Positions 4,874 through 50,815 of a stretch of 64,000 nt of DNA are shown here, in pieces (within the stretch, counting starts at the first letter, position 1; the number at the start of each line of letters is the position of its first letter). The translations under genes and the position numbers were made by a program. Source of the DNA: Elusimicrobiota bacterium (lineage in GTDB: Bacteria; Elusimicrobiota; Elusimicrobia; Elusimicrobiales; UBA9959); assembly GCA_009773155.1 (NCBI GenBank), contig WOVA01000016.1, positions 25,507-89,506 on the forward strand, given 5' to 3'. The notes beneath the pieces are model-generated. The model did no database searches, was not told where the DNA came from, and worked only from the letters and a program-made list of their open reading frames with translations.

Positions 4874-5914
4874 CTACGGTTTGAGTATGACCTTCCCGCA
4901 TTTCTTCCCGCGGGAGGTTATCAGCGTGAAAGCCTTGCGGTAATCGGCGAAAGGCAGAGTGTGCGTCACGGCGGGGCGTATGTCCACGGCGCCCGACTTG
5001 AGCAGGTTCTCCATGCGGTACCAGGTGGCGAAGATCTCGCGGCCCGAGATGCCGTAGAGGCGGGCCCCCTTGAAGGCCAGTCCGCCGGCGTAGTCCAGCG
5101 AGGGGTTGGTTTCGGGGATCCCGAAGGCGGTGAACCGCCCGCCGGGTCTGAGCGCCTTGAGGCCCAGGTCTATGGCGCGGTGCTCGCCCGACATCTCCAG
5201 TACCGCGTCCACGCCGCCGCGTCCGCCGGCCGCTTTGAGGACCTTCTCAAGGGCGCCTTTGGCGCCGGGATCAATTATCGTGTCGGCGCCCATCTTTTTC
5301 GCCAGCGTCCTGCGGTAGGCCGAGCCCTCCAGCGCTATGACGGGCTTGGCCCCGCTGGCCTTGGCTATCGCTATGGCGAAGAGGCCCTGGGGGCCGCAGC
5401 CCGTAACCAGCGCGGACCGGCCCACCACGTCCTCCACCTGCACGGCGTGCACGGCGTTGCCGAAAGGCTCCAGCAGGGCGCCCAGTTCTTTAAGGCTCTC
5501 GTCGTTATGCTTCCAGGCGCAGCGCGCGGGCAGGCGGGCGTACTCGGCCAGCCCCCCGTCCAGGTCCAGGCCGAGTATCTTCAGGTTGGAACAGACATGG
5601 CGCTGGTCGTTGCGGCACTGGTAGCACTGGCCGCAGAAAATATGGGATTCGGCGGAGACGAAGTCGCCTTTTCCGAAGCCTTTGGCGAGCTCGCCTATCT
5701 CCACCACCTCGCCGCAGAACTCGCGGCCGAGCACGCGGGGGAGCTTCATGCGGCCCTTTATCCAGCCTTTCCAGGACCAGGCCGCTAGGTCGGCCGGCGA
5801 GATGGAGGCGCTGTGCACGCGCACCAGAAGTTCGTCGGGGGCTATCCGCGGTAGCGGTACCTGCGCGAGCCTGGCGCCGGCGGAGGGGGAGGTTTTGACT
5901 ATGGCTTTCATCAT
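4874..5914 (-). CDS. tdh: L-threonine 3-dehydrogenase (Zn-dependent MDR family)
   Basis: Zn-ADH fold motifs (GREFCGEV, CGQCYQCRN, GCGPQG). Forms the classical tdh-kbl operon pair. Confidence 0.88.
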   Translation of the reverse strand: MMKAIVKTSPSAGARLAQVPLPRIAPDELLVRVHSASISPADLAAWSWKGWIKGRMKLPRVLGREFCGEVVEIGELAKGFGKGDFVSAESHIFCGQCYQCRNDQRHVCSNLKILGLDLDGGLAEYARLPARCAWKHNDESLKELGALLEPFGNAVHAVQVEDVVGRSALVTGCGPQGLFAIAIAKASGAKPVIALEGSAYRRTLAKKMGADTIIDPGAKGALEKVLKAAGGRGGVDAVLEMSGEHRAIDLGLKALRPGGRFTAFGIPETNPSLDYAGGLAFKGARLYGISGREIFATWYRMENLLKSGAVDIRPAVTHTLPFADYRKAFTLITSRGKKCGKVILKP

Positions 5915-6417: not shown

Positions 6418-8012
6418 GCGCCAAAGGCTCCCTCATACTGGTCCTTCACGCGCACCTGCCTTACGTGAACCATCCCTCCAGCCCCGATTTTCTGGAGGAG
6501 AGCTGGTTCTTCGAGGGCGTGGTCGAGACCTACATCCCCATTATAACGATGCTGGAGAATCTGGCAAAAGACGGGATAAAGGCCGGCCTTACCATTTCCA
6601 TTTCTCCCACGCTGGGCGCGATGCTGGAGAACGAGAGCCTCGAAGGCAAGCTCATCGCCTACGTGGATTCGCGCCTCGCCCTGCTCGAGAAGGAAGCCGA
6701 GCGGGCCGGCGACCAGGAGCCCCTGGCCAGAACCGTGCGCCTCTACCAGCGCGTCTACGAGCAGGCCGCCGAGCTGCTGCACCGCTACAGCGGCGACATC
6801 ATAACGCCGCTCAAGCAGTTCCAGGCCGCCGGGCAGATAGAGATCATCACCACTTCCGCCACGCACGCCGTGCTGCCGCTGCTGTCGCGCCCCGAGGCCC
6901 TGCGCGCGCAGATCGCCGTGGCGGCCGAGGACTACGAGGACCGCTTCAACCGCAAGTCCTCCGGCTTCTGGCTGCCGGAATGCGCCTACGACAAGAGGCT
7001 GCAGACCTATCTCAAGCTCTCCGGCTTTAATTTCGTCTTCCTGGAATCGCACGGCGTGCAGTTCGGCTCGCCGCCTGCGCCGAGCGGCGTCTATTCTCCC
7101 TACCGCACGCCCAACGGGTTATCGGTGTTAGGGCGCGACTGCGAGTCGTCGAAAGAGGTCTGGAGCGCGCGTTACGGCTACCCCGGCGACCCGGCCTACC
7201 GCGAGTTCTACCGCGACGTAGGCTACGACGGCGACGAGGAGTATCTCAGGCCCTGGCTGGCCGGCCAGCGGCGGCCCCTGGGCCTCAAGTACCACCGCAT
7301 CACCGGTTCGGTGGACCTGGCGAAGAAGGAACTTTACGACCCCGACGCCGCGCTGGAGCGCGTCGAGGCGCACGCGGCCGATTTCCTGGCCAAGAGGCTG
7401 GCGCAGGTGGAGGCCATCGCCGCGAGCGGCGTGGCCAGGCCCGTGATAACCGGCTGCTACGACGCGGAGCTTTTCGGCCACTGGTGGTTCGAGGGCCCGG
7501 CTTTCCTGGAGTCGGTGATCCGCCGCATCAGGCAGGACCGCCTGCCCGTGCAGCTGGTGACGCCCACGGAGTATCTCAATTCCTGCCAGGAGCCGCCGGA
7601 GCTGGAGCCCGAGCTCTCGTCCTGGGGAGAGAACGGCTATTTCGACCCCTGGCTGAACCAGTCCAACGATTCCATCTACGCGCCGATACTGGGCGCGACG
7701 GAGCGCATGGTGGAGATGGCCAACCGCTTCCGCAGCCACGACCTGACGCACGTGTCCAGCCGGGCGCTGAATCAGGCGGCGCGCGAGGTGCTGCTGTCCC
7801 AGTCCTCGGACTGGCCGTTCCTGCTCTACATCAATTCCCACTCCAAGTACGCGGGCGACCGCGTGCGAGGGCACTGCCGCAACGCCGAGGAGCTGCTGTC
7901 GCAGGTCCTCGAAAAGCGCGTGGACGAGCGGGCCCTCGGCGCGCTCGAACGCGACCACTCCCTCTTCCCTCGCCTCGACTTCCGCATCTTCTCCTCCGCC
8001 TCCGAGTTCTAA
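6414..8012 (+). CDS. Glycoside hydrolase family 57 1,4-alpha-glucan branching enzyme-like protein
   Basis: The N-terminus LILVLHAHLPYVNHP is typical of GH57 branching enzymes. The ORF-track extension 6117..6413 is Arg-rich junk that overlaps the previous gene. Confidence 0.85.
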   Translation: MSAKGSLILVLHAHLPYVNHPSSPDFLEESWFFEGVVETYIPIITMLENLAKDGIKAGLTISISPTLGAMLENESLEGKLIAYVDSRLALLEKEAERAGDQEPLARTVRLYQRVYEQAAELLHRYSGDIITPLKQFQAAGQIEIITTSATHAVLPLLSRPEALRAQIAVAAEDYEDRFNRKSSGFWLPECAYDKRLQTYLKLSGFNFVFLESHGVQFGSPPAPSGVYSPYRTPNGLSVLGRDCESSKEVWSARYGYPGDPAYREFYRDVGYDGDEEYLRPWLAGQRRPLGLKYHRITGSVDLAKKELYDPDAALERVEAHAADFLAKRLAQVEAIAASGVARPVITGCYDAELFGHWWFEGPAFLESVIRRIRQDRLPVQLVTPTEYLNSCQEPPELEPELSSWGENGYFDPWLNQSNDSIYAPILGATERMVEMANRFRSHDLTHVSSRALNQAAREVLLSQSSDWPFLLYINSHSKYAGDRVRGHCRNAEELLSQVLEKRVDERALGALERDHSLFPRLDFRIFSSASEF

Positions 8013-11300: not shown

Positions 11301-11335
11301 CCCGGAAAATAGAGGGGGCGGCCGGAGGCGGTACC

Positions 11336-11398
11336 GGGACACCATGCCGCATGGTGTCCCCCGCTGATACACCATGCCGCATGGTGTCCCCCGCTGAT
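11336..11398. repeat. GGGACACCATGCCGCATGGTGTCCC palindrome, tandem pair (30-nt unit x2)
   Basis: The unit acaccatgccgcatggtgtcccccgctgat occurs at 11339-11368 and again at 11369-11398, in the eno-ftsB spacer. Confidence 0.9.
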
Positions 11399-11417
11399 GG
11401 CCGCCCCGTGGCGGACT

Positions 11418-12704
11418 TTACTTCTTGAAGCGGAAGGCCGCGTCCTTGGCGTACCTGGCCTTCTTGCCCAGCTCCTCCTCGATGCGGATGAGCTGGTTGT
11501 ACTTGCAGAGGCGCTCGCTGCGGCACGGCGCGCCCGTCTTGATGGCGCCGGCGTTGACGGCGACGGCGAGGTCCGCTATGAAGGCGTCCTCGGTCTCGCC
11601 CGAGCGGTGAGAGATCACGGTGGCGTAATCGGCCTCGTGCGCCATATTGATGACGCGAATGGTCTCGGTCAGCGAGCCGATCTGGTTGAGCTTGATGAGG
11701 ATGGCGTTGGCGATGTCCTCCTCGATGCCCCGCTTGAGGCGCTCGGGGTTGGTGACGAATAGGTCGTCGCCGACGATGCGGGCTTTCTTGCCCAGCTGCT
11801 TGGTGAAATGCTCCCAGCCTTCCCAGTCGTCCTCGGCCAGCGGGTCCTCGTAGGAGATGATCGGAAAATGCTTCTTCCAGTCCGCGTAGCGGGCCGTCAG
11901 CTGCTCGGCCGTCAGGTTGGCGCCCTCGAACATATAGCTGCCGTTCTTGTAGAACTCGCTGGCGGCGGAGTCGAAGGCTATCTGCACTTCCTTGAACGTG
12001 TAGCCGGCCTCCCTGATGGCCTTCGCGATGGTCTCGATCACGGCCTCGTGGGTGAAGATCTTGGGGGCGAAGCCGCCTTCGTCGCCGACCGCCGTGGTAT
12101 AGCCGCCCTTGGAGAGGATGGCCTTGAGCGTGTGGTAGACTTCCGCGCCCACGCGGATGGCGTCGGAGAACCTGGCCGCGCCCGTCGGGACGATCATGAA
12201 CTCCTGTATGTTGATGCCGCTGTCGGCGTGCTTGCCGCCGTTGACGATGTTGAGCATCGGGGCGGGCAGCAGGAAGTCCTTGTGCTTTATGCCGTAGGCC
12301 TTGCGGATATAGGCGTAGAGCGGCAGCCTGGCCGACTGCGCGGCCGCGCGGGCCAGCGCCATGGAGACGGAGAGGATGGCGTTGGCGCCCAGCTTGCTCT
12401 TGGTCTGCGTGCCGTCGAGCTCTATCATCTGGTCGTCGATCTTCTCCTGCTCGGCCTTGAGCCCGATGAGCTCGGGGGCGATGAGCCTGGTGACGTTCTC
12501 GACGGCTTTGAGCACGCCCTTGCCGCGGTAGCGCTTGCCGCCGTCGCGCAGTTCCAGCGCCTCGTGGGTGCCGGTGGAGGCGCCGCTGGGAACGGCGGCG
12601 CGGCCGAAGGAGCCGTCGGCCAGCAGCACGTCGGTCTCCACCGTGGGAAAGCCGCGGGAATCGAGTATCTCGCGGGAGACTATTTTTTTGATCTTGGCGT
12701 CCAT
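11418..12704 (-). CDS. eno: Enolase
   Basis: Full-length enolase ([13 protein letters not shown]..., [20 protein letters not shown]). Confidence 0.97.
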
Positions 12705-14363: not shown

Positions 14364-14819
14364 GTGAACAAGCGTCTCTCATCCAAGGCGACGCAGTACC
14401 TGCTGGACGCCTCCAACTTCGCGCGCCGTTTTCCCGGCGGTCATGGGTTCTCGGCGGACCTGGCGGAGGCCGAGTTCCTGGGCTGGATAGAGGATTTGAC
14501 CGGCCTGCCGGCCTTCGCCTCCTCCGGCTTCAGGGTCTATTTCGACGGGCCTTTCCGGGAGCTGCGGTTACGGGGACACCATGCCGCATGGTGTCCCCGT
14601 AACCGGGACCAGGTCAGCGTGACTTTCAACGAGGGGCGCACCGCCGACGAAGCGCTGCTGGAGACCGGGGAATTCCTGCTTTCCTGCGGCGTGCGCGCGC
14701 TGCTGGTCACCTCGGACAGGGGGCTGCAGTCGGCGGCCGGGGTGCGCGGCATCGGCTGGCTGAGCTGCGAGGATTTCTACAAGTTATGCCGTGCCGAGCT
14801 GCGCCGGGAAAGCCGTTGA
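14364..14819 (+). CDS. YacP/Rae1-like NYN-domain protein carrying an in-frame palindrome insertion
   Basis: Blocks align by eye with B. subtilis YacP: YLLDASNF / LLVDGYN, VYFDG / VVFDA, VSVTFNEGRTADE / VEVIFTKENETADE, LVTSD / VATSD. GTG start. Confidence 0.6.
   Translation: MNKRLSSKATQYLLDASNFARRFPGGHGFSADLAEAEFLGWIEDLTGLPAFASSGFRVYFDGPFRELRLRGHHAAWCPRNRDQVSVTFNEGRTADEALLETGEFLLSCGVRALLVTSDRGLQSAAGVRGIGWLSCEDFYKLCRAELRRESR
14566..14604. repeat. 39-bp perfect palindrome of the GGGGACACC family, inside the NYN-domain CDS
   Basis: ggttacggggacaccatgc-c-gcatggtgtccccgtaacc. It spans 13 codons, roughly the RLRGHHAAWCPRNR stretch. Confidence 0.92.
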
Positions 14820-18766: not shown

Positions 18767-19775
18767 CGGCCCGTTCCAGGTTGCGCAGGCTGATGCCGGC
18801 CCTGGCGCATTCCATCACGGCCGTCTCCACGGTTATGGAGGGGCTGGCGTTGCGGCCCAGGCAGCGCTTGAGCTCGAAAAGCCCGTCGAGGAGCCTGGTC
18901 ATGGAGGCCTTCTCCGGCCCTTCCGCCGTGCGCCAGCGCGCGGCCGAGCGGGTGACCAGGATATTGAGTATCAGGCGGGCGGTCTCGCGGGCCGTCGCCA
19001 GCTCGCGGCCCAGCTTGTCGGCCACGCGGAAAGGGGCCATCGGGTCCAGGTGGTTGAGGTCGGAAAGTTTCTCCAGCACCGCGCGCAGGTCCAGCGCGCG
19101 CTTGACCGAGCCGAAGGAGAGGCCGGCCAGGTTGTCGGCCTCGGCCAGCTCCAGGCCCTCGCGCCCCAGCACCTCGGCCACCTCGCGCCTGGCCAGGCCG
19201 CGGAAATTAACGGTGTGGCAGCGCGAGAGTATCGTCGGCAGCAGCGAGGCCCTGTTGGAGGCTATCAGGATGAAGGCCGTGTCCGGCGGCGGCTCCTCGA
19301 GCATCTTGAGTATGGCGTTCTGCGCCTCCACGGTCATGGAGGAGGCGTCGTTGATCACGAATATCTTCCAGGGCGAGAGTATGGGGCTGGAGTAGGCGCT
19401 GCGGGAGAGCTCGCGCACGGTGTCTATCTTTACGCTGCGCTGCTTCTCCTCGTCCTCGCCCAGCAGGTGCGCCTGCCAGGCGGCGTCCACCAGGCGGCAG
19501 TCGGGGTGGATGTTCTTGCCCAGCTGGAGGCAGGAGGGGCATTTGCCGCAGGCCCGGCCCGGCTCGCGGGGGGCGGGCTCGGCCGCGCCGAACAGTCCGC
19601 CCTCGTCGGCCGGCTCGCCGGTGCAGTTGAGCCCCGCCGCGAATTCCATGGCGGCCAGCCGCTTGCCTGTCCCCTCCTGGCCGTAGAAGATCATGGCCGG
19701 CGGCACGCGGCCGGAGGCGGCCAGCGCCCTCAGCGCGGCCCTCTCGCGTTCATGGCCCAGTATTTCCTTGAACAT
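18759..19775 (-). CDS. holB: DNA polymerase III subunit delta-prime
   Basis: AAA+ clamp-loader pattern (GHERERAAL...IFYGQEGTGKRLAA...C..C..C), SRC-like motif TILSRC, and the tmk-holB-metG context. Confidence 0.85.
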   Translation of the reverse strand: MFKEILGHERERAALRALAASGRVPPAMIFYGQEGTGKRLAAMEFAAGLNCTGEPADEGGLFGAAEPAPREPGRACGKCPSCLQLGKNIHPDCRLVDAAWQAHLLGEDEEKQRSVKIDTVRELSRSAYSSPILSPWKIFVINDASSMTVEAQNAILKMLEEPPPDTAFILIASNRASLLPTILSRCHTVNFRGLARREVAEVLGREGLELAEADNLAGLSFGSVKRALDLRAVLEKLSDLNHLDPMAPFRVADKLGRELATARETARLILNILVTRSAARWRTAEGPEKASMTRLLDGLFELKRCLGRNASPSITVETAVMECARAGISLRNLERADA

Positions 19776-20404
19776 CAGCGCGTCCTAAAACCCTTTTTGC
19801 GGAGCAGGGCGTTCACGGCGGAGCGGACCTGCCCGTGCACGGCCTCTATCGCCGCGGCCGCGTTCACGCGGACGACGCCGGGCCTGGCCGCCAGTTTCTT
19901 GTAAGCCCTGTTGACCTTCAGCCTGAAAGAGGCCGTCTGCAGTTCCATCCTGTCGCTGCCGCGGCATTCGCGCCGCTTGAAAACGCTGTCGGGCACGTCG
20001 AAGACTATGGTCAGGTCGGGCTTCAGGCCCATGGTGGCTATGCGGTTGAGCGTCTCCACCGTCTTCAGGTCCAGGCCGCGCCCGTAGCCCTGGTAGGCCG
20101 TCGTGGACATCGTATAGCGGTCGGAAACTATTATTTCGCCGGCTTTCAGCGCCGGCATTATGACTTTCAGCGTGTGCTTGGCGCGCGAGGTCTCGTAAAG
20201 GAAAAGTTCGGTGAGCGGTTCTATCTCGCTCTTGGGGTCCAGCAGTATGGCGCGTATCTTCTCGGAAAGATATGTCCCGCCGGGCTCGCGCGTCAGGCGC
20301 ACCTTGCGGCCCAGGCCGGTCAGCCAGTCCCGGAGCATGGCTGCCTGGGTGGATTTGCCGGAGCGGTCCGGGCCTTCGAGTACGATGAAAATCCCCCGTT
20401 TCAT
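19775..20404 (-). CDS. tmk: Thymidylate kinase
   Basis: P-loop FIVLEGPDRSGKST and the DRY motif (VSDRY). Start at MKRGIF (20404); the ORF-track extension crosses a palindrome repeat. Confidence 0.92.
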   Translation of the reverse strand: MKRGIFIVLEGPDRSGKSTQAAMLRDWLTGLGRKVRLTREPGGTYLSEKIRAILLDPKSEIEPLTELFLYETSRAKHTLKVIMPALKAGEIIVSDRYTMSTTAYQGYGRGLDLKTVETLNRIATMGLKPDLTIVFDVPDSVFKRRECRGSDRMELQTASFRLKVNRAYKKLAARPGVVRVNAAAAIEAVHGQVRSAVNALLRKKGFRTR

Positions 20405-20471
20405 TATTATATGATAGCAAAAAGGGAAAACCCCGGTTTTGCCGGGGTTTTCGGCGCGGCCGCGGCCGAAC

Positions 20472-20497
20472 GGGGCACCATGCCGCATGGTGTCCCC
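20472..20497. repeat. GGGGACACC-family palindrome copy (intergenic, tmk / rpoN-like divergent spacer)
   Basis: ggggcaccatgccgcatggtgtcccc. The left arm lacks one A. It is followed by ccccgatgccgg, as in the 50.5 kb copy. Confidence 0.8.
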
Positions 20498-20521
20498 CCC
20501 CCGATGCCGGCGCTGGTAAAT

Positions 20522-29485: not shown

Positions 29486-29619
29486 CCGGGACCGAGGCCG
29501 GCGCTTTATCAGGGATTTCCCTTTTTAGTAACATTTGCGAAACACGCCGGGTGTAAATTATAGGCGCCGGTACTCCGCCCCGCCGGCGGCAAGGACGGGG
29601 CAGGTGCGGAAGAAAGCAA

Positions 29620-29642
29620 GGACACCATGCGGAATGGTGTCC
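29620..29642. repeat. GGACACC-family palindrome copy upstream of the giant coiled-coil gene
   Basis: ggacaccat-gcgga-atggtgtcc, about 40 nt before ATG 29682. Confidence 0.75.
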
Positions 29643-29681
29643 CCACCCGGCGGAACGATGTTTTTTTTACGGACTTTAACT

Positions 29682-36063: not shown

Positions 36064-37236
36064 ATGGCCAAGATACTGATCGTCGACGACGAACCAGACA
36101 TGAGGCTGGCGATAAAGAACGTCCTGCGCCTGAGGGGGCACGAAGTCTCCGAGGCCCAGGACGGTCCGTCCGCGCTGGCCGCGCTGGAGGGCGAGAAGCC
36201 CGACCTGGTCCTGCTCGACATCAGGCTGCCCGGCATGGACGGCATAGAGCTGCTGGAGCGCATACGCAAGATGAGCCGCTCCCTGCCGGTGGTGATGATA
36301 ACCGGGTACGGCCACATACAGTCGGCCGTCGACGTGATGAAGCTCGGAGCCAACGAGTACCTGCAGAAACCTTTCGAGAACTCGCAGCTGGTGGATACTG
36401 TGAAGCGCTTCACTTCCGGGCGCAAGCCCGCGCCGGCGGCCGCCGCAGGGGACATCCCGCCTCATGATGGCGGGGACGCCATGCCGCAGGGCGTCGCCAA
36501 ACCTCTCTTTACCCCGGCCAGGCTGCTGGCCCTGGCCGCCGCCGCCGCCGCCCTGCTTCTTTTTTTCCGCTGGTCCGACGGCCGGCGCAATTACGCCGCG
36601 GCTTACGAGTCGGCCGGGGCCAACGTGTCATCCCTGGTCTGGCGCGGCGGGGACCTCTGGGTCTCCGACTGGCTGGAGCAGAGCCTCTACCGCTACGCGC
36701 CGCGCGGCGGCAAGCTCGCCCTTGCCGAGAAAGTCGCGCTGCCGGGCACCCATATCACCGGCTTCGCCTTCGGCGACGACGCCCTCTACATCTGCGATTC
36801 CTGGGCCGGCGTGGTGCAGGAACGTACGCTGGAGAAGGGGTTCCCGGTGGCCAGGAACCACGACCTGCCGGGCAAGATAACCTCGCTTTTCTTTGACGGC
36901 AAATATCTCTGGACCTGCGATTCGGAGGGCGTGGTCTCGCGCCGGAGGACCGGGGAAGACCTGCCGGTGGAGGCGGAGTTCCGGCTGGCGCATAAGCCCG
37001 ACCAGATCTATAAGGACTCCGGCGCCTTCTGGTCGGTGGTCTCCTCGAGCGGCAGGCTCTACCGCCACCGGCTCGACGACAAACTTTCGGTGGAGGCGGT
37101 CTTTACGGCCGGCGACCCCGGCGCCGACAGGCCCCTGTCGGCCTTTACCTGGAGCAAGGGCAGGCTCTGGCTGGCCAGGGAGGGCGGCAAGAGCATAGGG
37201 GAGTACGGCCCCGGGATATTGAAAGAAACCGACTGA
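36064..37236 (+). CDS. Response-regulator receiver fused to a TM helix and a C-terminal beta-propeller-like repeat domain
   Basis: REC (KILIVDDEPDMR...DLVLLDIRLPGMDG...KLGANEYLQKPF), TM LLALAAAAAALLLFF, then five repeats of the type [LF].W..G.LW..D (SLVWRGGDLWVSDW, ALYICDSW, YLWTCDSEG, AFWSVVSSSG, RLWLAREGG). Confidence 0.85.
   Translation: MAKILIVDDEPDMRLAIKNVLRLRGHEVSEAQDGPSALAALEGEKPDLVLLDIRLPGMDGIELLERIRKMSRSLPVVMITGYGHIQSAVDVMKLGANEYLQKPFENSQLVDTVKRFTSGRKPAPAAAAGDIPPHDGGDAMPQGVAKPLFTPARLLALAAAAAALLLFFRWSDGRRNYAAAYESAGANVSSLVWRGGDLWVSDWLEQSLYRYAPRGGKLALAEKVALPGTHITGFAFGDDALYICDSWAGVVQERTLEKGFPVARNHDLPGKITSLFFDGKYLWTCDSEGVVSRRRTGEDLPVEAEFRLAHKPDQIYKDSGAFWSVVSSSGRLYRHRLDDKLSVEAVFTAGDPGADRPLSAFTWSKGRLWLAREGGKSIGEYGPGILKETD
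36472..36498. repeat. Degenerate GGGGAC-family palindrome inside the response-regulator linker
   Basis: ggggacgccatgccgcagggcgtcgcc (arms gacgcc/ggcgtc) encodes GDAMPQGVA between the REC domain and the TM. Confidence 0.5.
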
Positions 37237-37870: not shown

Positions 37871-37898
37871 GGGGGGGGACTCCGGCCCCTGAAATCTT

Positions 37899-37970
37899 TG
37901 CGCCCGGCGCGATTCGAACGCGCGGCCACCCGCTTAAAAGGCGGATGCTCTACCACTGAGCTACGGGCGC
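37899..37970 (-). tRNA. tRNA-Lys (anticodon TTT)
   Basis: Hand fold of the reverse complement: GCGCCCG-TA-GCTC-AGTGGTA-GAGC-A-TCCGC-CTTTTAA-GCGGG-TGGCC-GCGCG-TTCGAAT-CGCGC-CGGGCGC-A. Confidence 0.92.
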
Positions 37971-37975
37971 ATATT

Positions 37976-38066
37976 GGGGACGTTGTTTAGTTGTTTAGTT
38001 TTCCGTCCGGGTGGACGGATACGGGTTTCCTGCCTCCCGAAAACTAAACAACTAAACAACGTCCCC
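37976..38066. repeat. Long-hairpin palindromic element, copy 2 (28-bp arms, about 35-nt loop)
   Basis: ggggacgttgtttagttgtttagttttc ... gaaaactaaacaactaaacaacgtcccc. It differs from copy 1 by a C-to-G change in the left arm and the complementary G-to-C change in the right arm. The loop is unrelated to the copy 1 loop. Confidence 0.85.
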
Positions 38067-38089
38067 ACTGATTATACAAAAATTGTAGA

Positions 38090-46502: not shown

Positions 46503-49313
46503 CTGTCACACAGCCGCAAGCTATTTTATGCCCTGACGCTGGCGCTCCTCTGCCCGGCCGCGGCCCTGGCCGACAATAAGGTCATAATCAGGGACTTCGA
46601 CTGGAAGGTCTATTCCACCGACCATTTCGACGTCCATTATTACGCCGAGTCCGAGGGTTGGCACCGCTTCGCCGCCGCCGTGCTGGAGGACGCCTACCGG
46701 ACCACCGGGCTCTCGCTCAACCCCAAACTGGACAAGCGCATTCCCTTCTTCCTCTACGCCTCCATAAACGACATGCAGCAGTCCAATATCGCCGATACCG
46801 GCGACGGCGTGGGCGGCGTGACCGAGGCCTTCAAGGACCGCTTCATGGTCTGGTCGGACGGCTCGCGCGAATGGCTGGAGGACGTCATCCGCCACGAATT
46901 CGCCCACGAGGTGCAGTTCAGCCTGCTTATCGACGGTTTCTGGAAGTCCGCACGCATACTCAAGCTCTACATCTACCCGCTCTGGATGATGGAGGGCATC
47001 GCGGAGTACGCGACCGGCGACCGCGACCTGGCCGTGGAGGAGATGTATATACGCGACGCGGCCGCCGACGGGCGCCTGACCGAGCTGTGGAGGCTCAACC
47101 AGTTCTCCCACCTCAAGCCCCACCAGGTGACCTACGCCTACAAGCTCGGCGGCCAGGCGGTGCGTTTCCTCGCTGAGCAGTACGGCGAAGACCGCGTGGG
47201 CAGGATGCTGGAGCTCTATCGCACCCGCTACGACGCCTCGTCGGTGCTGCTGCCGCTGGTCGGGGCCGACATCTTCGGGTTCGACAGCAGGTTCCGCGAG
47301 CGCACCACCCAGAAGTTCCTGGCCCAGGCGGAGCGCGAGGGGTTGCGCGGGCCGGAGGCCTGGGCCCCGCCGCGCACCGCCAACAAATATCCGGGTATAC
47401 CGGAGTTCAACCTCAGCCCCGCCCGCGCGGCGGGGACGCTGGCCTGGCTCTCTACGGAAGAAGGCCATCCGCCCGTGGTGAAGGCGCTCCGGCCCGGCGA
47501 TAAAAAAGCGCGGGTCCTGCGCGGCCTCTCCGCCGGCGCGGAGAACATCCCCTACGGCCGCTTCACCAAGCCGCTGCGTTCGCTCTCGCTCTCTCCGGAC
47601 GGGCGCTGGGCCGTTTTTTCCGGCCAGCGCAACCACCGCGAGGGTATTTACGCCTGGGACCTGGAGACCGGCCGCTCGGCGCGCCTGGGCCCCGAAGGCC
47701 TGGAGGAAACCCGCCAGCCGCATTTTTCCCCCGACGGGAAGCGGCTGGTCTTCGTCGGCATGAAAGGCGGCTTCAACGACCTCTACGAGATGGATTTCCA
47801 CGGCCTGGAAAAAGTGCGGGCCGCGCGCCGGCTGACCGAAGACCGGGACGACGAGTCCTCGCCCACCTTCGCGCCGGACGGTGCGATATACTTCTCCTGC
47901 GAATTGCCGGTCTCGTCGGCGCCCGTCCGGGGTCTCTGCTCGCTGGCGCCGGGGGGAGAGAAGAAAGTCGAGCTGACGCTGGACGGCAGCGTCTACGATC
48001 CTGCGGTCTCGCCCGACGGCTCCAGGGTTATCTTCACCTGCGACAGGGAGAATATCTTCGACCTCTACGAGTACGAGCCGGCCTCGGGCGCGGTGACCCG
48101 GCTGACGCGCTCGCTGGGCGGCTCCTTCACCCCTTCCTACGGCGAAGGGGGGGAGATAGTCTTCGCGGCCTTCCGCGGCGGCGAGATGAACGTCCATTCC
48201 GGCCCCCGTGAAAATTTCCTCTCCGAGGTCGTAGTGCCGCCGGCAGACGGTACGGGGACACCATGCGCCATGGTGTCCCTTCCTGATGCCTTCGGCGTAT
48301 ACCGGCCCTACCGCTTCAGAGCCTCCACGGACCTGTTCTTCCCGGCCTTCCTGTTCTCCTCGCCCGGCGGGCTTTTCTGGATGAACTACTGGCAGGCCTC
48401 CGACATGCTGGGCGACCACAAGGCCGGGCTCTTCCTCACCTATAATTCCGGCGCTCCCTACCTCAGTTACCAGTTCGACTACACCTACGGCCCGCACAGG
48501 ACGCGGTTCTATTTCTCGGCTGCGGGCCTGTCCTCCGAAGGGAACAAGGACGCGCTGTCGCTGGAATACGACAAGCGCTGGTCGAGGCAGATAGCGGGCG
48601 CCTCGTATCCTTTCGACCGCTATAACGGCGCCCTGCTCTATCTGATACGCAAGAATGAGAAGACCGAATACACCGACGTAGACTATGCCTACAGGAACGA
48701 CGTGCGCGCGGCGCAGCTGGCTTACTTCCGCGACACCGCCAACGGCGTCTACCTGCTGGCCAACCGCGGCTCGCGCCTGCAGCTGAGCTGGATAAAAGCC
48801 GTCGAAAAGTTCGGCGGCAACAGGCGCTACGACGCCTATGTCGGCGAGCTGACCAAATTCTTCCCGCTGAGCAAGCAGGCCACGCTGGTCAACCGCCTTT
48901 TCGCGGCCGAGAGCTTCGGCCGGGACCGCGACGCTTTCGACTACGGCGGCCTGTCCGGCGTGCGCGGCTACGCCCGCCGCAACGGGGCCAACGAGGCCGG
49001 GCGGGTGCTGGTCAACAACCTGGAGTGGCGCTTCCCTCTCTTCGAGGACCTCAACTATTATATGTGGTATATGTTCCCCGATTTTTATTTCAAGACCATC
49101 TTCGCCAAGGTTTTCGTCGACTCGGCCGTCCCGCTTCAGCCCCAGGGGTCCTGGCGGTTCAGCGCGGACGACGCGATAACTTCCGTGGGTTTCGGCGTGA
49201 ACGTGCACACCTTCATCCTGCAGGCTTTCCCGCTGGTGCTGAGCCTGGATTACGCGCGCCGGCTGGACGACGGAGGGTACATAGTGTATTTCTACCTGGG
49301 CCCGCTTTTCTGA
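46503..49313 (+). CDS. Composite outer-membrane protein: HExxH peptidase-like module + PD40/TolB-like propeller repeats + Omp85/BamA-like C-terminal barrel (start uncertain, possibly CTG)
   Basis: VIRHEFAHEVQF (HExxH), PD40 repeats (SPDGRWAVFSG, FSPDGKRLVF, FAPDGAIYF, VSPDGSRVIF), and the barrel end ...IVYFYLGPLF. The signal-peptide-like SHSRKLFYALTLALLCPAAALA is encoded in-frame upstream of the first ATG (46680). The only in-frame candidate start there is CTG 46503. Confidence 0.8.
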   Translation: MSHSRKLFYALTLALLCPAAALADNKVIIRDFDWKVYSTDHFDVHYYAESEGWHRFAAAVLEDAYRTTGLSLNPKLDKRIPFFLYASINDMQQSNIADTGDGVGGVTEAFKDRFMVWSDGSREWLEDVIRHEFAHEVQFSLLIDGFWKSARILKLYIYPLWMMEGIAEYATGDRDLAVEEMYIRDAAADGRLTELWRLNQFSHLKPHQVTYAYKLGGQAVRFLAEQYGEDRVGRMLELYRTRYDASSVLLPLVGADIFGFDSRFRERTTQKFLAQAEREGLRGPEAWAPPRTANKYPGIPEFNLSPARAAGTLAWLSTEEGHPPVVKALRPGDKKARVLRGLSAGAENIPYGRFTKPLRSLSLSPDGRWAVFSGQRNHREGIYAWDLETGRSARLGPEGLEETRQPHFSPDGKRLVFVGMKGGFNDLYEMDFHGLEKVRAARRLTEDRDDESSPTFAPDGAIYFSCELPVSSAPVRGLCSLAPGGEKKVELTLDGSVYDPAVSPDGSRVIFTCDRENIFDLYEYEPASGAVTRLTRSLGGSFTPSYGEGGEIVFAAFRGGEMNVHSGPRENFLSEVVVPPADGTGTPCAMVSLPDAFGVYRPYRFRASTDLFFPAFLFSSPGGLFWMNYWQASDMLGDHKAGLFLTYNSGAPYLSYQFDYTYGPHRTRFYFSAAGLSSEGNKDALSLEYDKRWSRQIAGASYPFDRYNGALLYLIRKNEKTEYTDVDYAYRNDVRAAQLAYFRDTANGVYLLANRGSRLQLSWIKAVEKFGGNRRYDAYVGELTKFFPLSKQATLVNRLFAAESFGRDRDAFDYGGLSGVRGYARRNGANEAGRVLVNNLEWRFPLFEDLNYYMWYMFPDFYFKTIFAKVFVDSAVPLQPQGSWRFSADDAITSVGFGVNVHTFILQAFPLVLSLDYARRLDDGGYIVYFYLGPLF
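48255..48279. repeat. GGGACACC-family palindrome copy inside the Omp85-like CDS
   Basis: gggacaccatg-cgc-catggtgtccc. The extended 46-nt unit 48245..48290 encodes DGTGTPCAMVSLPDA between the propeller and barrel parts. Confidence 0.88.
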
Positions 49314-49340
49314 CCTATGTTTTATGATAAAATCCTAACT

Positions 49341-50420
49341 ATGAAACACATACTGACTTTTATTTCCCCACTGCTCCTGGCGGGCGCTCTCTTTGTCCCG
49401 GCCGCGGCCCAGACCGCGCCGGCAAAAAAAGCCGCCTCGCCGGCCCCCAAAGCCGCCGCGCCGGCCCCAAAAGCCGCCCCCGCGGCCAAGAAGGCGGCCG
49501 CCGCCGCGCCTAAAGCGGCGCCCGCGGTAGCGGCGTCCACCCCTACCCCGAAAACGCCTTTCGAGGAAGCCACGGACAACCTGAAAGCGGCCGACGCCGC
49601 CACCCGCCGCCAGGGCGCCGACGCGCTGGGCCGCCTGCGCGACGGCAAGGCCGAGCCGCTGCTCCTGAAAGCGCTCTCCGACGAGAGCGCGCCGGTCCGC
49701 GCGGCCGCGGCCGACTCTCTGGGCATGCTCAGGTCGCGCGGAGCCGTGCCGGTACTGGCGAAGATGCTGACGGACGACAAGGACCCTTCCGCCAGACAGG
49801 CGGCGGCCATCTCCCTTTCCTATATCGGCGATCCCGCGGCCGGCGACGCGCTGGTGAAAGCGCTCAAGGACGAGGCTCCCGGCGTGCGCTACGCCGCCGC
49901 GCGCACCCTCGGCGTCATCCGCTACGCCAAGGCGGAGGACGCGCTGATAGTTTTCCTCGACGGGAAGGACCTTAATATGCGCCGCGGCGCCGCCGCCACG
50001 CTGGGCCAGCTGCGCTCCGTCAAGGCGCTGGACGGCCTCTACGTCGCGGTCCGCGACGAAGACAGGTTCCTGCGGCTGGAGTCGGTCAAGGCCATAGGAG
50101 AGATAGGCGACAAGGCCGCCGTTCCCGCCCTGTCCAAGGCCCTCGCCGACAAAGACCAGAGCGTGAGCATAGAAGCCGCGCTCGCGCTGGCTAAACTGGG
50201 CAGCGACGAGGGGCTCAAGGCCGCCTACGAACTGATAAAGTCTCCCGAGATGCCCGTAAAGCAGCAGGCGGCTAATGTCATAGCCCTGATGGGCAATGAG
50301 AAGAGCGTTAAGGTCCTCGACGAGGTCTACGCCGCGGAGAAGGACGAGAATTCGAAGATGCTCATAGATTACGCCAGGCAGAGGCTCGCCGCCCGCCTGC
50401 GGCTGCAGAAACAGCAGTAG
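49341..50420 (+). CDS. Secreted HEAT-repeat (PBS-lyase-type) protein with Ala/Pro/Lys-rich N-terminal region
   Basis: Signal peptide MKHILTFISPLLLAGALFVPAAA, an AKKAA/APKAA low-complexity tract, then repeated ..VR..AA.ALG....A.P.L...L.D units. Confidence 0.8.
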   Translation: MKHILTFISPLLLAGALFVPAAAQTAPAKKAASPAPKAAAPAPKAAPAAKKAAAAAPKAAPAVAASTPTPKTPFEEATDNLKAADAATRRQGADALGRLRDGKAEPLLLKALSDESAPVRAAAADSLGMLRSRGAVPVLAKMLTDDKDPSARQAAAISLSYIGDPAAGDALVKALKDEAPGVRYAAARTLGVIRYAKAEDALIVFLDGKDLNMRRGAAATLGQLRSVKALDGLYVAVRDEDRFLRLESVKAIGEIGDKAAVPALSKALADKDQSVSIEAALALAKLGSDEGLKAAYELIKSPEMPVKQQAANVIALMGNEKSVKVLDEVYAAEKDENSKMLIDYARQRLAARLRLQKQQ

Positions 50421-50446: not shown

Positions 50447-50815
50447 ATGGCAAAGAAGTCCCGCAAGCGCGCCAAGGCCGCCCAGGAGAAGGGCGCCGCC
50501 GCGCGCGGCGCGTATTTAACCGGCACGCCCTTAGACGGTACGGGGACGCCATGCGGCAGGGTGTCCCCCGCCGATGCCGGGGGGGAGATAAGCGGCGCGG
50601 GCTGGCTGATAGTGGCCGTTTCGGTCATCACCGCCGTCGTCGGCTACTTCCTGCTCTCCAAAGCCGCTCCCGAAGGCCGCGACCTCTACTCCAATCTCTC
50701 TCCTTTCGTGATCCTGGCCGGCTATATAGGCGTAGCCGTGGGAATAATGTGGCCGGGACGGCGGGGGGAGGGGGAGGAATACCCTGCTTCCGCCGGCGAA
50801 AAGTTCCCGGCCTGA
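50447..50815 (+). CDS. Small hypothetical membrane protein (two TM helices) containing a palindrome-derived segment
   Basis: Basic N-terminus, then two TMs (GWLIVAVSVITAVVGYFLL, FVILAGYIGVAVGIMW). Residues DGTGTPCGRVSPADA are encoded by the repeat. Confidence 0.5.
   Translation: MAKKSRKRAKAAQEKGAAARGAYLTGTPLDGTGTPCGRVSPADAGGEISGAGWLIVAVSVITAVVGYFLLSKAAPEGRDLYSNLSPFVILAGYIGVAVGIMWPGRRGEGEEYPASAGEKFPA
50542..50568. repeat. Degenerate GGGGAC-family palindrome copy inside the small membrane-protein ORF
   Basis: ggggacgccatgcggcagggtgtcccc. By hand alignment, the extended unit 50533..50578 matches 48245..48290 at 39 of 46 positions. Confidence 0.65.

Follow-up and report, generated by a model that had tools for sequence, protein, structure and literature searches.

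A short dispersed palindromic repeat of Elusimicrobia that is read in frame within unrelated protein-coding genes

We analyzed a 64,000-nucleotide stretch of DNA from an Elusimicrobiota bacterium (GenBank assembly GCA_009773155.1, contig WOVA01000016.1, positions 25,507 to 89,506 of the forward strand; hereafter the window, 64% GC), in which two unrelated genes carry, at 48245-48290 and 50533-50578, closely similar units of DNA in the same reading frame. Both units are, in all likelihood, copies of a short dispersed palindromic repeat, a hairpin element resembling the repetitive extragenic palindromes (REPs). This degree of confidence applies to the favoured interpretation as a whole, namely that the repeats form a family, that their insertions into genes are tolerated, and that selection on the encoded peptide mainly produces the skew in the frame in which they are read. 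Members of the family are present in some orthologues and absent from others, reside in real genes in a form compatible with translation, and are read there predominantly in one frame.

A previous reading of the window from its letters alone (the sequence-only reading) had aligned the two units by hand at 39 of 46 identical positions in the same reading frame, and this match proved to be real. Both units are in phase with their host open reading frames (ORFs), since (48243-46680) mod 3 and (50531-50447) mod 3 are both equal to 0, and their translations are ADGTGTPCAMVSLPDAF (48245-48290) and LDGTGTPCGRVSPADAG (50533-50578); the window contains GACGGTACGGGGAC exactly two times. In 100 shuffles the palindrome pattern gave no match, and a profile built from 40 copies located outside the window found both sites, at 48243-48290 with an E-value of 6e-11 and at 50531-50580 with an E-value of 2e-12, which excludes a chance origin of the shared peptide. 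The central proposal, that a repeated palindrome inserted in two unrelated genes encodes a common peptide, was upheld, and frame use across the family was found to be far from random.

The core of the element is a 27-nucleotide palindrome (GGGGACACCATG-CSG-CATGGTGTCCCC) that spans 9 codons and consists of 12-bp arms and a 3-nucleotide loop. Most copies from Elusimicrobia belong to a longer version of about 45-50 nucleotides, referred to here as Type A (GCAGAY GGTAC N GGGACACCATGCSGCATGGTGTCCC CCGCYGATGC SGC), whose flanks, GCAGAY-GGTAC on one side and CGCYGATGC on the other, are specific to Elusimicrobia. Repeat finding, fuzzy search and profile search agreed on exactly eight copies in the window. 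The copy in the first gene (48243-48290, plus strand) pairs GGGGACACCATG with CATGGTGTCCC around a CGC loop, with a computed RNA folding energy of -29.6 kcal/mol (z = -3.7), and the copy in the second gene (50531-50580, plus strand) forms the hairpin GGGGACGCC...GGTGTCCCC with one G:T wobble in the arm (GACGCC / GGTGTC). A search of the window against Rfam 15 returned no match to the element, only five tRNAs reaching the gathering score, and a full-text literature search that combined Elusimicrobia with palindromic repeats brought up no earlier description of it. We rejected an intrinsic terminator as its identity, because none of the eight copies in the window has a T-run behind it and several of them are within ORFs that extend for hundreds of codons more.

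The first host gene (46680-49313, plus strand) encodes a conserved Elusimicrobia outer-membrane protein in which, on the evidence of homologues and of a structural model, a peptidase-MA domain is followed by a TolB-like PD40 propeller and an Omp85/TamA-like barrel. A public Elusimicrobia protein with the name surface antigen (D15) matches its 877-residue ORF at 100% identity, and its homologues with peptidase-MA and PD40/Tricorn domains, some of which also show Omp85 (PF01103), number more than 300. Here the element is read in frame +0 as ADGTGTPCAMVSLPDA, at residues 522-537; the last 12 nucleotides of the unit (CTTCCTGATGCC) may be partly native linker, orthologues having CTGCCGGAGGCC at that place. 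An alignment of 51 homologues located the element in a hypervariable linker between the conserved motifs ...PENFLYE... and ...PYRFKASTDLFFPAF, and neither the orthologue P0003 nor any of more than 50 homologues at a greater distance has it. In the AlphaFold2 model of the protein (mean predicted local distance difference test (pLDDT) 84, predicted template modelling score (pTM) 0.84), the sole internal segment with a pLDDT below 50 comprises residues 524-542, overlaps the element-encoded residues, follows the last strand of the propeller (516-518) and precedes the first one of the barrel (549). As Foldseek matched the propeller to TolB and the barrel to TamA/BamA, the model and these domain matches bear out the earlier placement of the unit at the propeller/barrel boundary.

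The conserved signal peptide and the first ~55 residues of this protein (LSHSRKLFYALTLALLCPAAALADNKVIIRDFDWK...) are encoded in frame upstream of its first ATG, GTG or TTG at 46680. In the alignment, the Met of P0003 falls on a CTG at 46503 with GGGGGA before it, and locus L100 is arranged alike. These alignments indicate that the true start probably lies upstream, near 46503, which would mean either that the gene uses a non-canonical start codon or that the public 877-residue gene call is truncated.

The DNA of this linker was found in four states among the window and its syntenic relatives: one forward copy in the window, a forward copy with a partial tandem duplication in L086, a reverse copy read as ASAGDTMRHGVPVP in L100, L101, L127 and P0004, and an empty linker in L102 (P0003). 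The two proteins with a forward copy have each other as closest relative, at 90% identity. Close relatives carry the element at this very place in the opposite orientation and in another frame. The opposite orientations may reflect either repeated hits or inversion or exchange by recombination. Over the end of the propeller and the barrel, the identity between L127, with its reverse copy, and the empty L102 is 95.7%, and across about 150 nucleotides that include the element L127 resembles L100, so that the linker region is a mosaic. This pattern suggests that the element-bearing segment moved between lineages by allelic recombination. L127 and L102 were discarded as a clean filled/empty pair, because the linker is mosaic and no exact boundaries were obtained.

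The second host gene (50447-50815, plus strand) encodes, according to its syntenic orthologues, a small membrane protein of 122 residues whose Lys/Arg-rich N-terminal tail precedes transmembrane segments. Its Type A copy, read in frame +0 as LDGTGTPCGRVSPADAG, is located in the tail before the first transmembrane segment, where the gene of the window has a net gain of 36 nucleotides (12 codons); the syntenic orthologues without the element have 110 residues (L100/L101) or 109 residues (L102). The assignment of this unit to an N-terminal tail was correct, and the tail may be cytoplasmic, as had been claimed, given the Lys/Arg-rich N-terminus. At L110/L121, a small membrane protein beginning with MAKK and organized in a similar way (29% identity, E = 6e-4) has a copy in reverse orientation in its N-terminal tail.

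A third genic copy in the window consists of the core only (14566-14604) and lies in a conserved hypothetical protein of 151 residues (ORF at 14364-14819). It is read in a third frame, as RLRGHHAAWCPRN (RGHHAAWCPR at 14572), so that the claim of same-frame use holds for the original pair and does not extend to all genic copies of the window. Most orthologues of this protein have 142 residues and are empty, reading FRELGFPVREPVSV where the window reads FRELRLRGHHAAWCPRNRDQVSV, and two others also carry the element. At the DNA level, the gene of the window exceeds the empty alleles (L130, L131) by 27 nucleotides, exactly the length of the core, and for this reason the minimal unit of the family is the 27-nucleotide hairpin, or 9 codons. 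The bases beside this core are complementary (GGTTAC...GTAACC) and lengthen the palindrome to an 18-bp stem with an RNA folding energy of -39.8 kcal/mol (z = -6), and the empty site reads GGTTCC CGGTCC. A comparison of the two alleles suggests that flanks turn palindromic after insertion of the core. In all, three filled/empty orthologue comparisons support insertion.

These comparisons also bear on the explanation that the two ORFs were mis-called and overlie intergenic repeats, or that the proteins share an ancestral motif or domain. High-GC DNA does yield many spurious long ORFs, and some apparent N-terminal copies are truly upstream of the start codon (tmk, ftsB). For the two copies originally observed, however, this explanation was refuted: conserved homologues of both hosts align on either side of the element, a confident AlphaFold2 model spans it, and the similarity is at the level of DNA, including third codon positions and a perfect palindrome. 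Moreover, the same DNA is also found between genes and is read in three different frames. We therefore consider this explanation scarcely credible.

The sequence-only reading had proposed a six-frame translation of the consensus and a tabulation of frame use, and both were carried out. Of the six frames of the 50-nucleotide consensus, +0 (ADGTGTPCRMVSPADA), +1 (QTVPGHHAAWCPPLMP), -0 (AASAGDTMRHGVPVPS), -1 (RHQRGTPCGMVSRYRL) and -2 (GISGGHHAAWCPGTVC) are free of stops, and +2 (RRYRDTMPHGVPR followed by a stop, or by RRC in the CGCCGAT variant) is the sole frame with a stop codon, a TGA that is found in the CGCTGAT variant only. Avoidance of stop codons, which had been offered as a cause of the shared frame, was thus rejected, with five of six frames open. 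Frame use was tabulated in 54 Type A copies from public Elusimicrobia DNA, all found by exact match to the core. For each copy, 150 nucleotides on each side were scored in six frames with a codon-usage model derived from long ORFs with high GC at third codon positions (GC3) at the same loci; this log-likelihood score, which replaced a brittle GC3-threshold classifier, was combined with the extent of ORFs and a reading of the translations. Identical or orthologous sites were merged by hand, backed by the identities of their flanks.

About 30 of 38 independent Type A sites were genic, and about eight were intergenic or unclear. Among the ~30 genic sites, 26 are read in frame -0, that is, on the reverse strand, as ASAGDTMRHGVPVP (ASAGDTM[RP]HGVPVP). 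Frame +0 (DGTGTPC.MVSPAD) was found at three sites, namely the two copies of the window (the first of which is shared by L086) and an HrpB helicase in L109, and frame -2 (GHHAAWCP) at one genic Type A site, with no sites in frames +1, +2 and -1. Two genic copies that consist of the core alone, at 14572 and in L129, also have the GHHAAWCP reading. The skew departs from equal use of the six frames (1/6) with a binomial p of about 8e-17, and with respect to the host gene 27 copies are reverse and 3 forward (p = 8e-6); equal use of all frames, including those that disrupt ORFs, was not seen. Frame use is thus strongly skewed towards a single frame, and the frame of the window pair is not the preferred one, +0 being a minority with 3 of ~30 sites.

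Pfam domains were recognized on both sides or on one side of the element in about 20 host proteins. These include HypF, an AmiC-type amidase, polyunsaturated fatty acid (PUFA) and polyketide (PKS) synthases in which the order is KS-AT-element-ACP, an M28 peptidase with a PDZ domain, HrpB, ScpB, DUF480, a GGDEF protein, PAP2 and TPR proteins. The genic copies lie in linkers between domains, directly after signal peptides (L006, L037 with a tandem pair, L094, L119 and L122), in N-terminal tails and in C-terminal tails. At orthologous sites the copies and their flanks show about equal divergence, so that many copies are old residents. We discarded the idea that the element evolves more slowly than its flanks, since no clear difference in rate was found, and the way in which the copies were collected, through exact matches, confounds the comparison. 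In L008, one low-complexity protein has two copies, one Type A and one core-only (276-300 and 846-870), both in the DTM.HGVP frame.

The peptides encoded by the six frames differ in quality. Only the -0 peptide is free of Cys and aromatic residues and has zero net charge; +0 comes next, with one Cys, and the remaining frames contain Trp plus Cys and His, or have a net charge of +4 to +5. In each orientation, then, only one of the three frames gives a small, uncharged, Gly/Pro/Ser/Ala-rich peptide resembling a linker, and these are the two frames that were seen, which fits with selection on the encoded peptide as the likeliest filter of frames. According to the favoured interpretation, copies have entered protein-coding genes and persist where 9-17 additional residues are harmless, as in linkers, after signal peptides and in tails. 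The insertions found keep the reading frame, and five of six frames are stop-free. The element usually lies antisense to the gene and is read as ASAGDTMRHGVPVP, a skew that purifying selection on the peptide would mainly produce, and the two proteins of the window share their peptide through the same orientation and codon phase of the element relative to the host gene.

Several observations weigh against this interpretation. The 27:3 orientation bias is not obviously explained by peptide selection, given that the +0 peptide differs mainly by one Cys, and the genic fraction of Type A sites (~30/38) is high if most genic insertions are lost. Furthermore, no filled/empty pair is clean, neighbouring bases having changed too, and short common motifs (GACGG, GGGG, TCC) are sometimes present at the junctions. 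The assignment of context relies mostly on codon-usage scoring and ORF extent, with Pfam backing for only about 20 hosts; sampling by exact core favours young, intact copies, and the removal of orthologous sites was manual.

The orientation bias and the high genic fraction would be accounted for if insertion itself were frame-aware or strand-biased and favoured sequences of fixed codon phase and strand in high-GC coding DNA, so that the skew would be present from the moment of insertion and would not result from selection. This could come about through microhomology of the element's ends with the codons of Ala/Pro/Gly-rich linkers, or through the strand relative to transcription or replication. 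In agreement with it, Ala precedes 16 of the 26 -0 copies, often as Pro-Ala, and the empty site of the small membrane protein already has GACGGCGGGG, similar to GACGGTACGGGG of the element. However, a test of k-mer phases in 270 kb of confident coding sequence gave no prediction of the -0 frame: GCSGCA seldom stands in phase 0 (38 of its 508 occurrences in the sense direction), and CCGTC, which would have to be in phase 0 for -0, is mostly found in phase 1. Microhomology to in-phase Ala/Pro codons was accordingly rejected, the phases of GCSGCA, CCGCSGC, GACGG and CCGTC having no such predictive value. In addition, the preceding Ala/Pro codons are partly conserved as DNA and may belong to the element, and orthologous intergenic copies stand in different frames relative to the neighbouring genes. 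We regard frame-aware insertion as unlikely, while giving it some weight.

It is also conceivable that the element is useful where it stands and has been domesticated, either as an mRNA hairpin (12-bp, GC-rich) that slows ribosomes or as a ready-made flexible linker. Its positions at domain boundaries, after signal peptides and in tails are not random, copies are kept at orthologous sites despite 10-20% divergence of the flanks, and the hairpin is stable. Yet the same positions are expected for neutral insertions that survived. Presence and absence vary among close relatives at all three loci examined, the host proteins and their cell compartments are mutually unrelated, both orientations are found at one site, and copies in other phyla are mostly intergenic; we consider usefulness in place very unlikely. 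Tolerated insertion followed by peptide selection remains the preferred reading of the genic copies.

A scan with the exact core of one genome per species gave at least 99 genome blocks, and a scan of metagenome contigs for the core plus the Type A tail added 26 further loci. In metagenome-assembled genomes (MAGs) of Elusimicrobia, the copies mostly have Type A flanks and are conserved over about 50 nucleotides. MAGs with the accession prefixes JACRIR, CAYVDS, CAYVQZ and CAZEBC (52-56% GC) likewise contain many copies of an identical core of 23-27 nucleotides, and there the stems are lengthened by 9-14 bp. The inner part of this extension is semi-conserved (TTAATTCGG or GTTATTGGG), and the outer stems vary between copies yet stay complementary (GCGCATATTCGG...CCGAATATGCGC vs. 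CCACCCTTTATTGG...CCAATAAAGGGTGG), a property for which flanks that become palindromic after insertion could account. Seventy-two of the 85 copies in these non-Elusimicrobia MAGs have no spanning ORF, and those of L021 (e.g., 5388-5410 and 6565-6587) are found directly behind the stop codons of rluD and gspF. The nearest named relatives of the JACRIR RluD protein belong to Lindowbacteria (78% identity), Hydrogenedentota (70%) and Abyssubacteria (64%), not to Elusimicrobia, and for this reason the core is taken to cross phyla; as assigned from database labels, one core is common to at least two phyla and has different flanks in each. No match that would indicate a vector for spread between phyla was obtained in plasmids, phages or IMG/VR.

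No target-site duplication was detected when direct repeats of 3-6 nucleotides were sought at all offsets in 43 distinct copies, the best excess being 3 over expectation. Similarly, a phmmer search with an IS200 TnpA transposase sequence, a weak test in that it covered 4,796 ORFs from ~1 Mb of element-centred loci, returned no match at E < 1, and clustering of all ORFs near the elements showed no recurrent transposase-like family, the neighbours that did recur being sensor kinases, ABC transporters, PilB and acyl-CoA synthetases. A more speculative account, which we consider distinctly unlikely as a whole, joins several of these points: the core present in at least two phyla would spread with neither a transposase of its own nor target-site duplication, perhaps through switches of template at microhomologies, its flanks would then become palindromic, and in Elusimicrobia a "coding-adapted" subfamily would have arisen, or the host would make use of the hairpin or the peptide at domain boundaries. 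If this were true, the flanks of the subfamily would make one frame a harmless linker, and coding sequence would be the main habitat of a REP-type element in a compact genome.

The remaining copies of the window are located mostly between genes. A tandem pair (11324-11369 and 11369-11399, plus strand), which represents a 30-nucleotide direct duplication of the hairpin plus tail, lies between two genes: the upstream one, on the minus strand, has its stop codon at 11418, and an ftsB/DivIC-like gene starts at about 11290. Orthologous loci have a single copy in L053 and L077, and L115 differs in frame relative to the flanking genes. An intergenic copy with a Type A 3' tail (20469-20509, plus strand; E = 3e-8) is situated ~80 nucleotides upstream of the real start of tmk (MKRGIFIVLEG). 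The longest tmk ORF (19775-20488) has its first start codon in the ATG within this core (20486-20488) and as a result shows a false N-terminal extension of 36 residues in the DTMRHG frame. An intergenic core-only copy with imperfect arms (29618-29644; E = 2e-6) precedes an ATG at about 29682. Finally, a weak and possibly decayed copy, GGGGACGCCATGCCGCAGGGCGTCGCC (36472-36498, minus strand; E = 0.014), is uncertain, with changes in both arms; its host is a response-regulator/transmembrane/propeller protein, in whose linker it reads GGDAMPQGV, a reading of the dominant frame type. This copy was not confirmed as an insertion, since the 89%-identical protein P0250 has no recognizable element peptide in the hypervariable linker.

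A second, unrelated hairpin repeat is present in the window at 2006-2098 and 37975-38067, with AT-rich arms of 29 nucleotides (GGGGACGTTGTTTAGTT, C or G, then TTTAGTTTTC, plus the complement). The C/G change between its two copies is compensated in the opposite arm, and their 35-nucleotide loops are unrelated. Both copies are intergenic, that at 37975-38067 abutting a tRNA-Lys gene (37898-37971, minus strand), and this repeat and the main element have the stem base GGGGAC...GTCCCC in common. Between the two host genes, four to five tandem 21-nucleotide repeats (49414-49518; CCGCGCCGGC...AAAGCCG) encode a Pro/Ala/Lys-rich segment near the N-terminus of a HEAT-repeat protein, whose gene (49317-50420) is absent from the syntenic locus L102.

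Copies of the element may mislead annotation in several ways: they create spurious peptide similarity between unrelated proteins, add false N-terminal extensions, as in tmk through the ATG in the core, and cause differences in length between orthologues that annotators should recognize.

Among known systems, the Rickettsia palindromic elements (RPEs) are palindromic repeats located in frame within genes, each family with a conserved peptide (Ogata et al. 2000, 2002, in the summaries of PMC10969869 and PMC3733652). The present element resembles them as a dispersed palindromic repeat that is in frame in many unrelated functional genes, uses one frame per family (here, 26 of 30 genic sites encode ASAGDTM[RP]HGVPVP), makes insertions compatible with the fold of the host protein and showed no associated transposase in the flanks that were searched. 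It differs in length, RPE-1 having about 100-150 bp vs. 27-50 nucleotides, and in its hosts, which are free-living Elusimicrobia of 64% GC and not intracellular AT-rich alphaproteobacteria; the two are set apart by length and composition. In addition, the present core is also an ordinary extragenic hairpin in another phylum. The element thus works like an RPE but is not a member of that group, given its length of 27-50 nucleotides and its presence in Elusimicrobia and in a Hydrogenedentota/Lindowbacteria-like MAG.

Among the GTAG- and CGTC-tagged REPs described by Di Nocera et al. (2013), some are intragenic and encode short peptides, most of these being from Opitutus terrae and R. conorii, and the CGTC REPs have no dedicated transposase (PMC3733652). 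The element shares with REPs a stem-loop of 20-40 bp, a high copy number and an arrangement as single, tandem or clustered units; its copies in non-Elusimicrobia MAGs lie just downstream of genes, as classic REPs do, and, as for CGTC REPs, neither a transposase nor a target-site duplication was seen. In contrast, it has no consistent GTAG/CGTC tag: counts over 40 Type A copies gave RRYG beside GGTAC, with GACG (CGTC on the other strand) as a minority and no GTAG, and in the copies from other MAGs the extended stems are fully paired. Its stem of 12 bp with a 3-nucleotide loop also differs from the 8-9 bp and the 4-5-nucleotide loops of the CGTC family; Type A copies are mostly intragenic (about 30/38), whereas REPs are predominantly extragenic near the 3' ends of genes. 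As for a RAYT (the REP-associated tyrosine transposase, of the Y1 HUH type, whose gene is flanked by REPs), the search of about 1 Mb of DNA around the elements gave none. Bacterial MITEs (miniature transposable elements with inverted repeats), including intragenic ERIC, form in-frame fusions as well (Delihas 2007, cited in PMC10969869), and in common with them the element is a small non-autonomous repeat that can be read as part of host ORFs. MITEs, however, have terminal inverted repeats that match an insertion sequence, target-site duplications and usually 100-400 bp, whereas the element is a single hairpin of at most 50 nucleotides with no duplication detected.

The strength of the preference for a single frame, the mostly genic habitat of Type A, and the use of one core across phyla with different flanks go beyond the textbook picture of these systems. 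After Rickettsia, the element represents a second, independent and well-sampled case of selfish DNA within genes that code for proteins, in free-living, high-GC, uncultured hosts, and a family this small, abundant and variable in presence could be used to address the question raised by the RPEs, whether the single-frame rule arises from insertion or from later selection.

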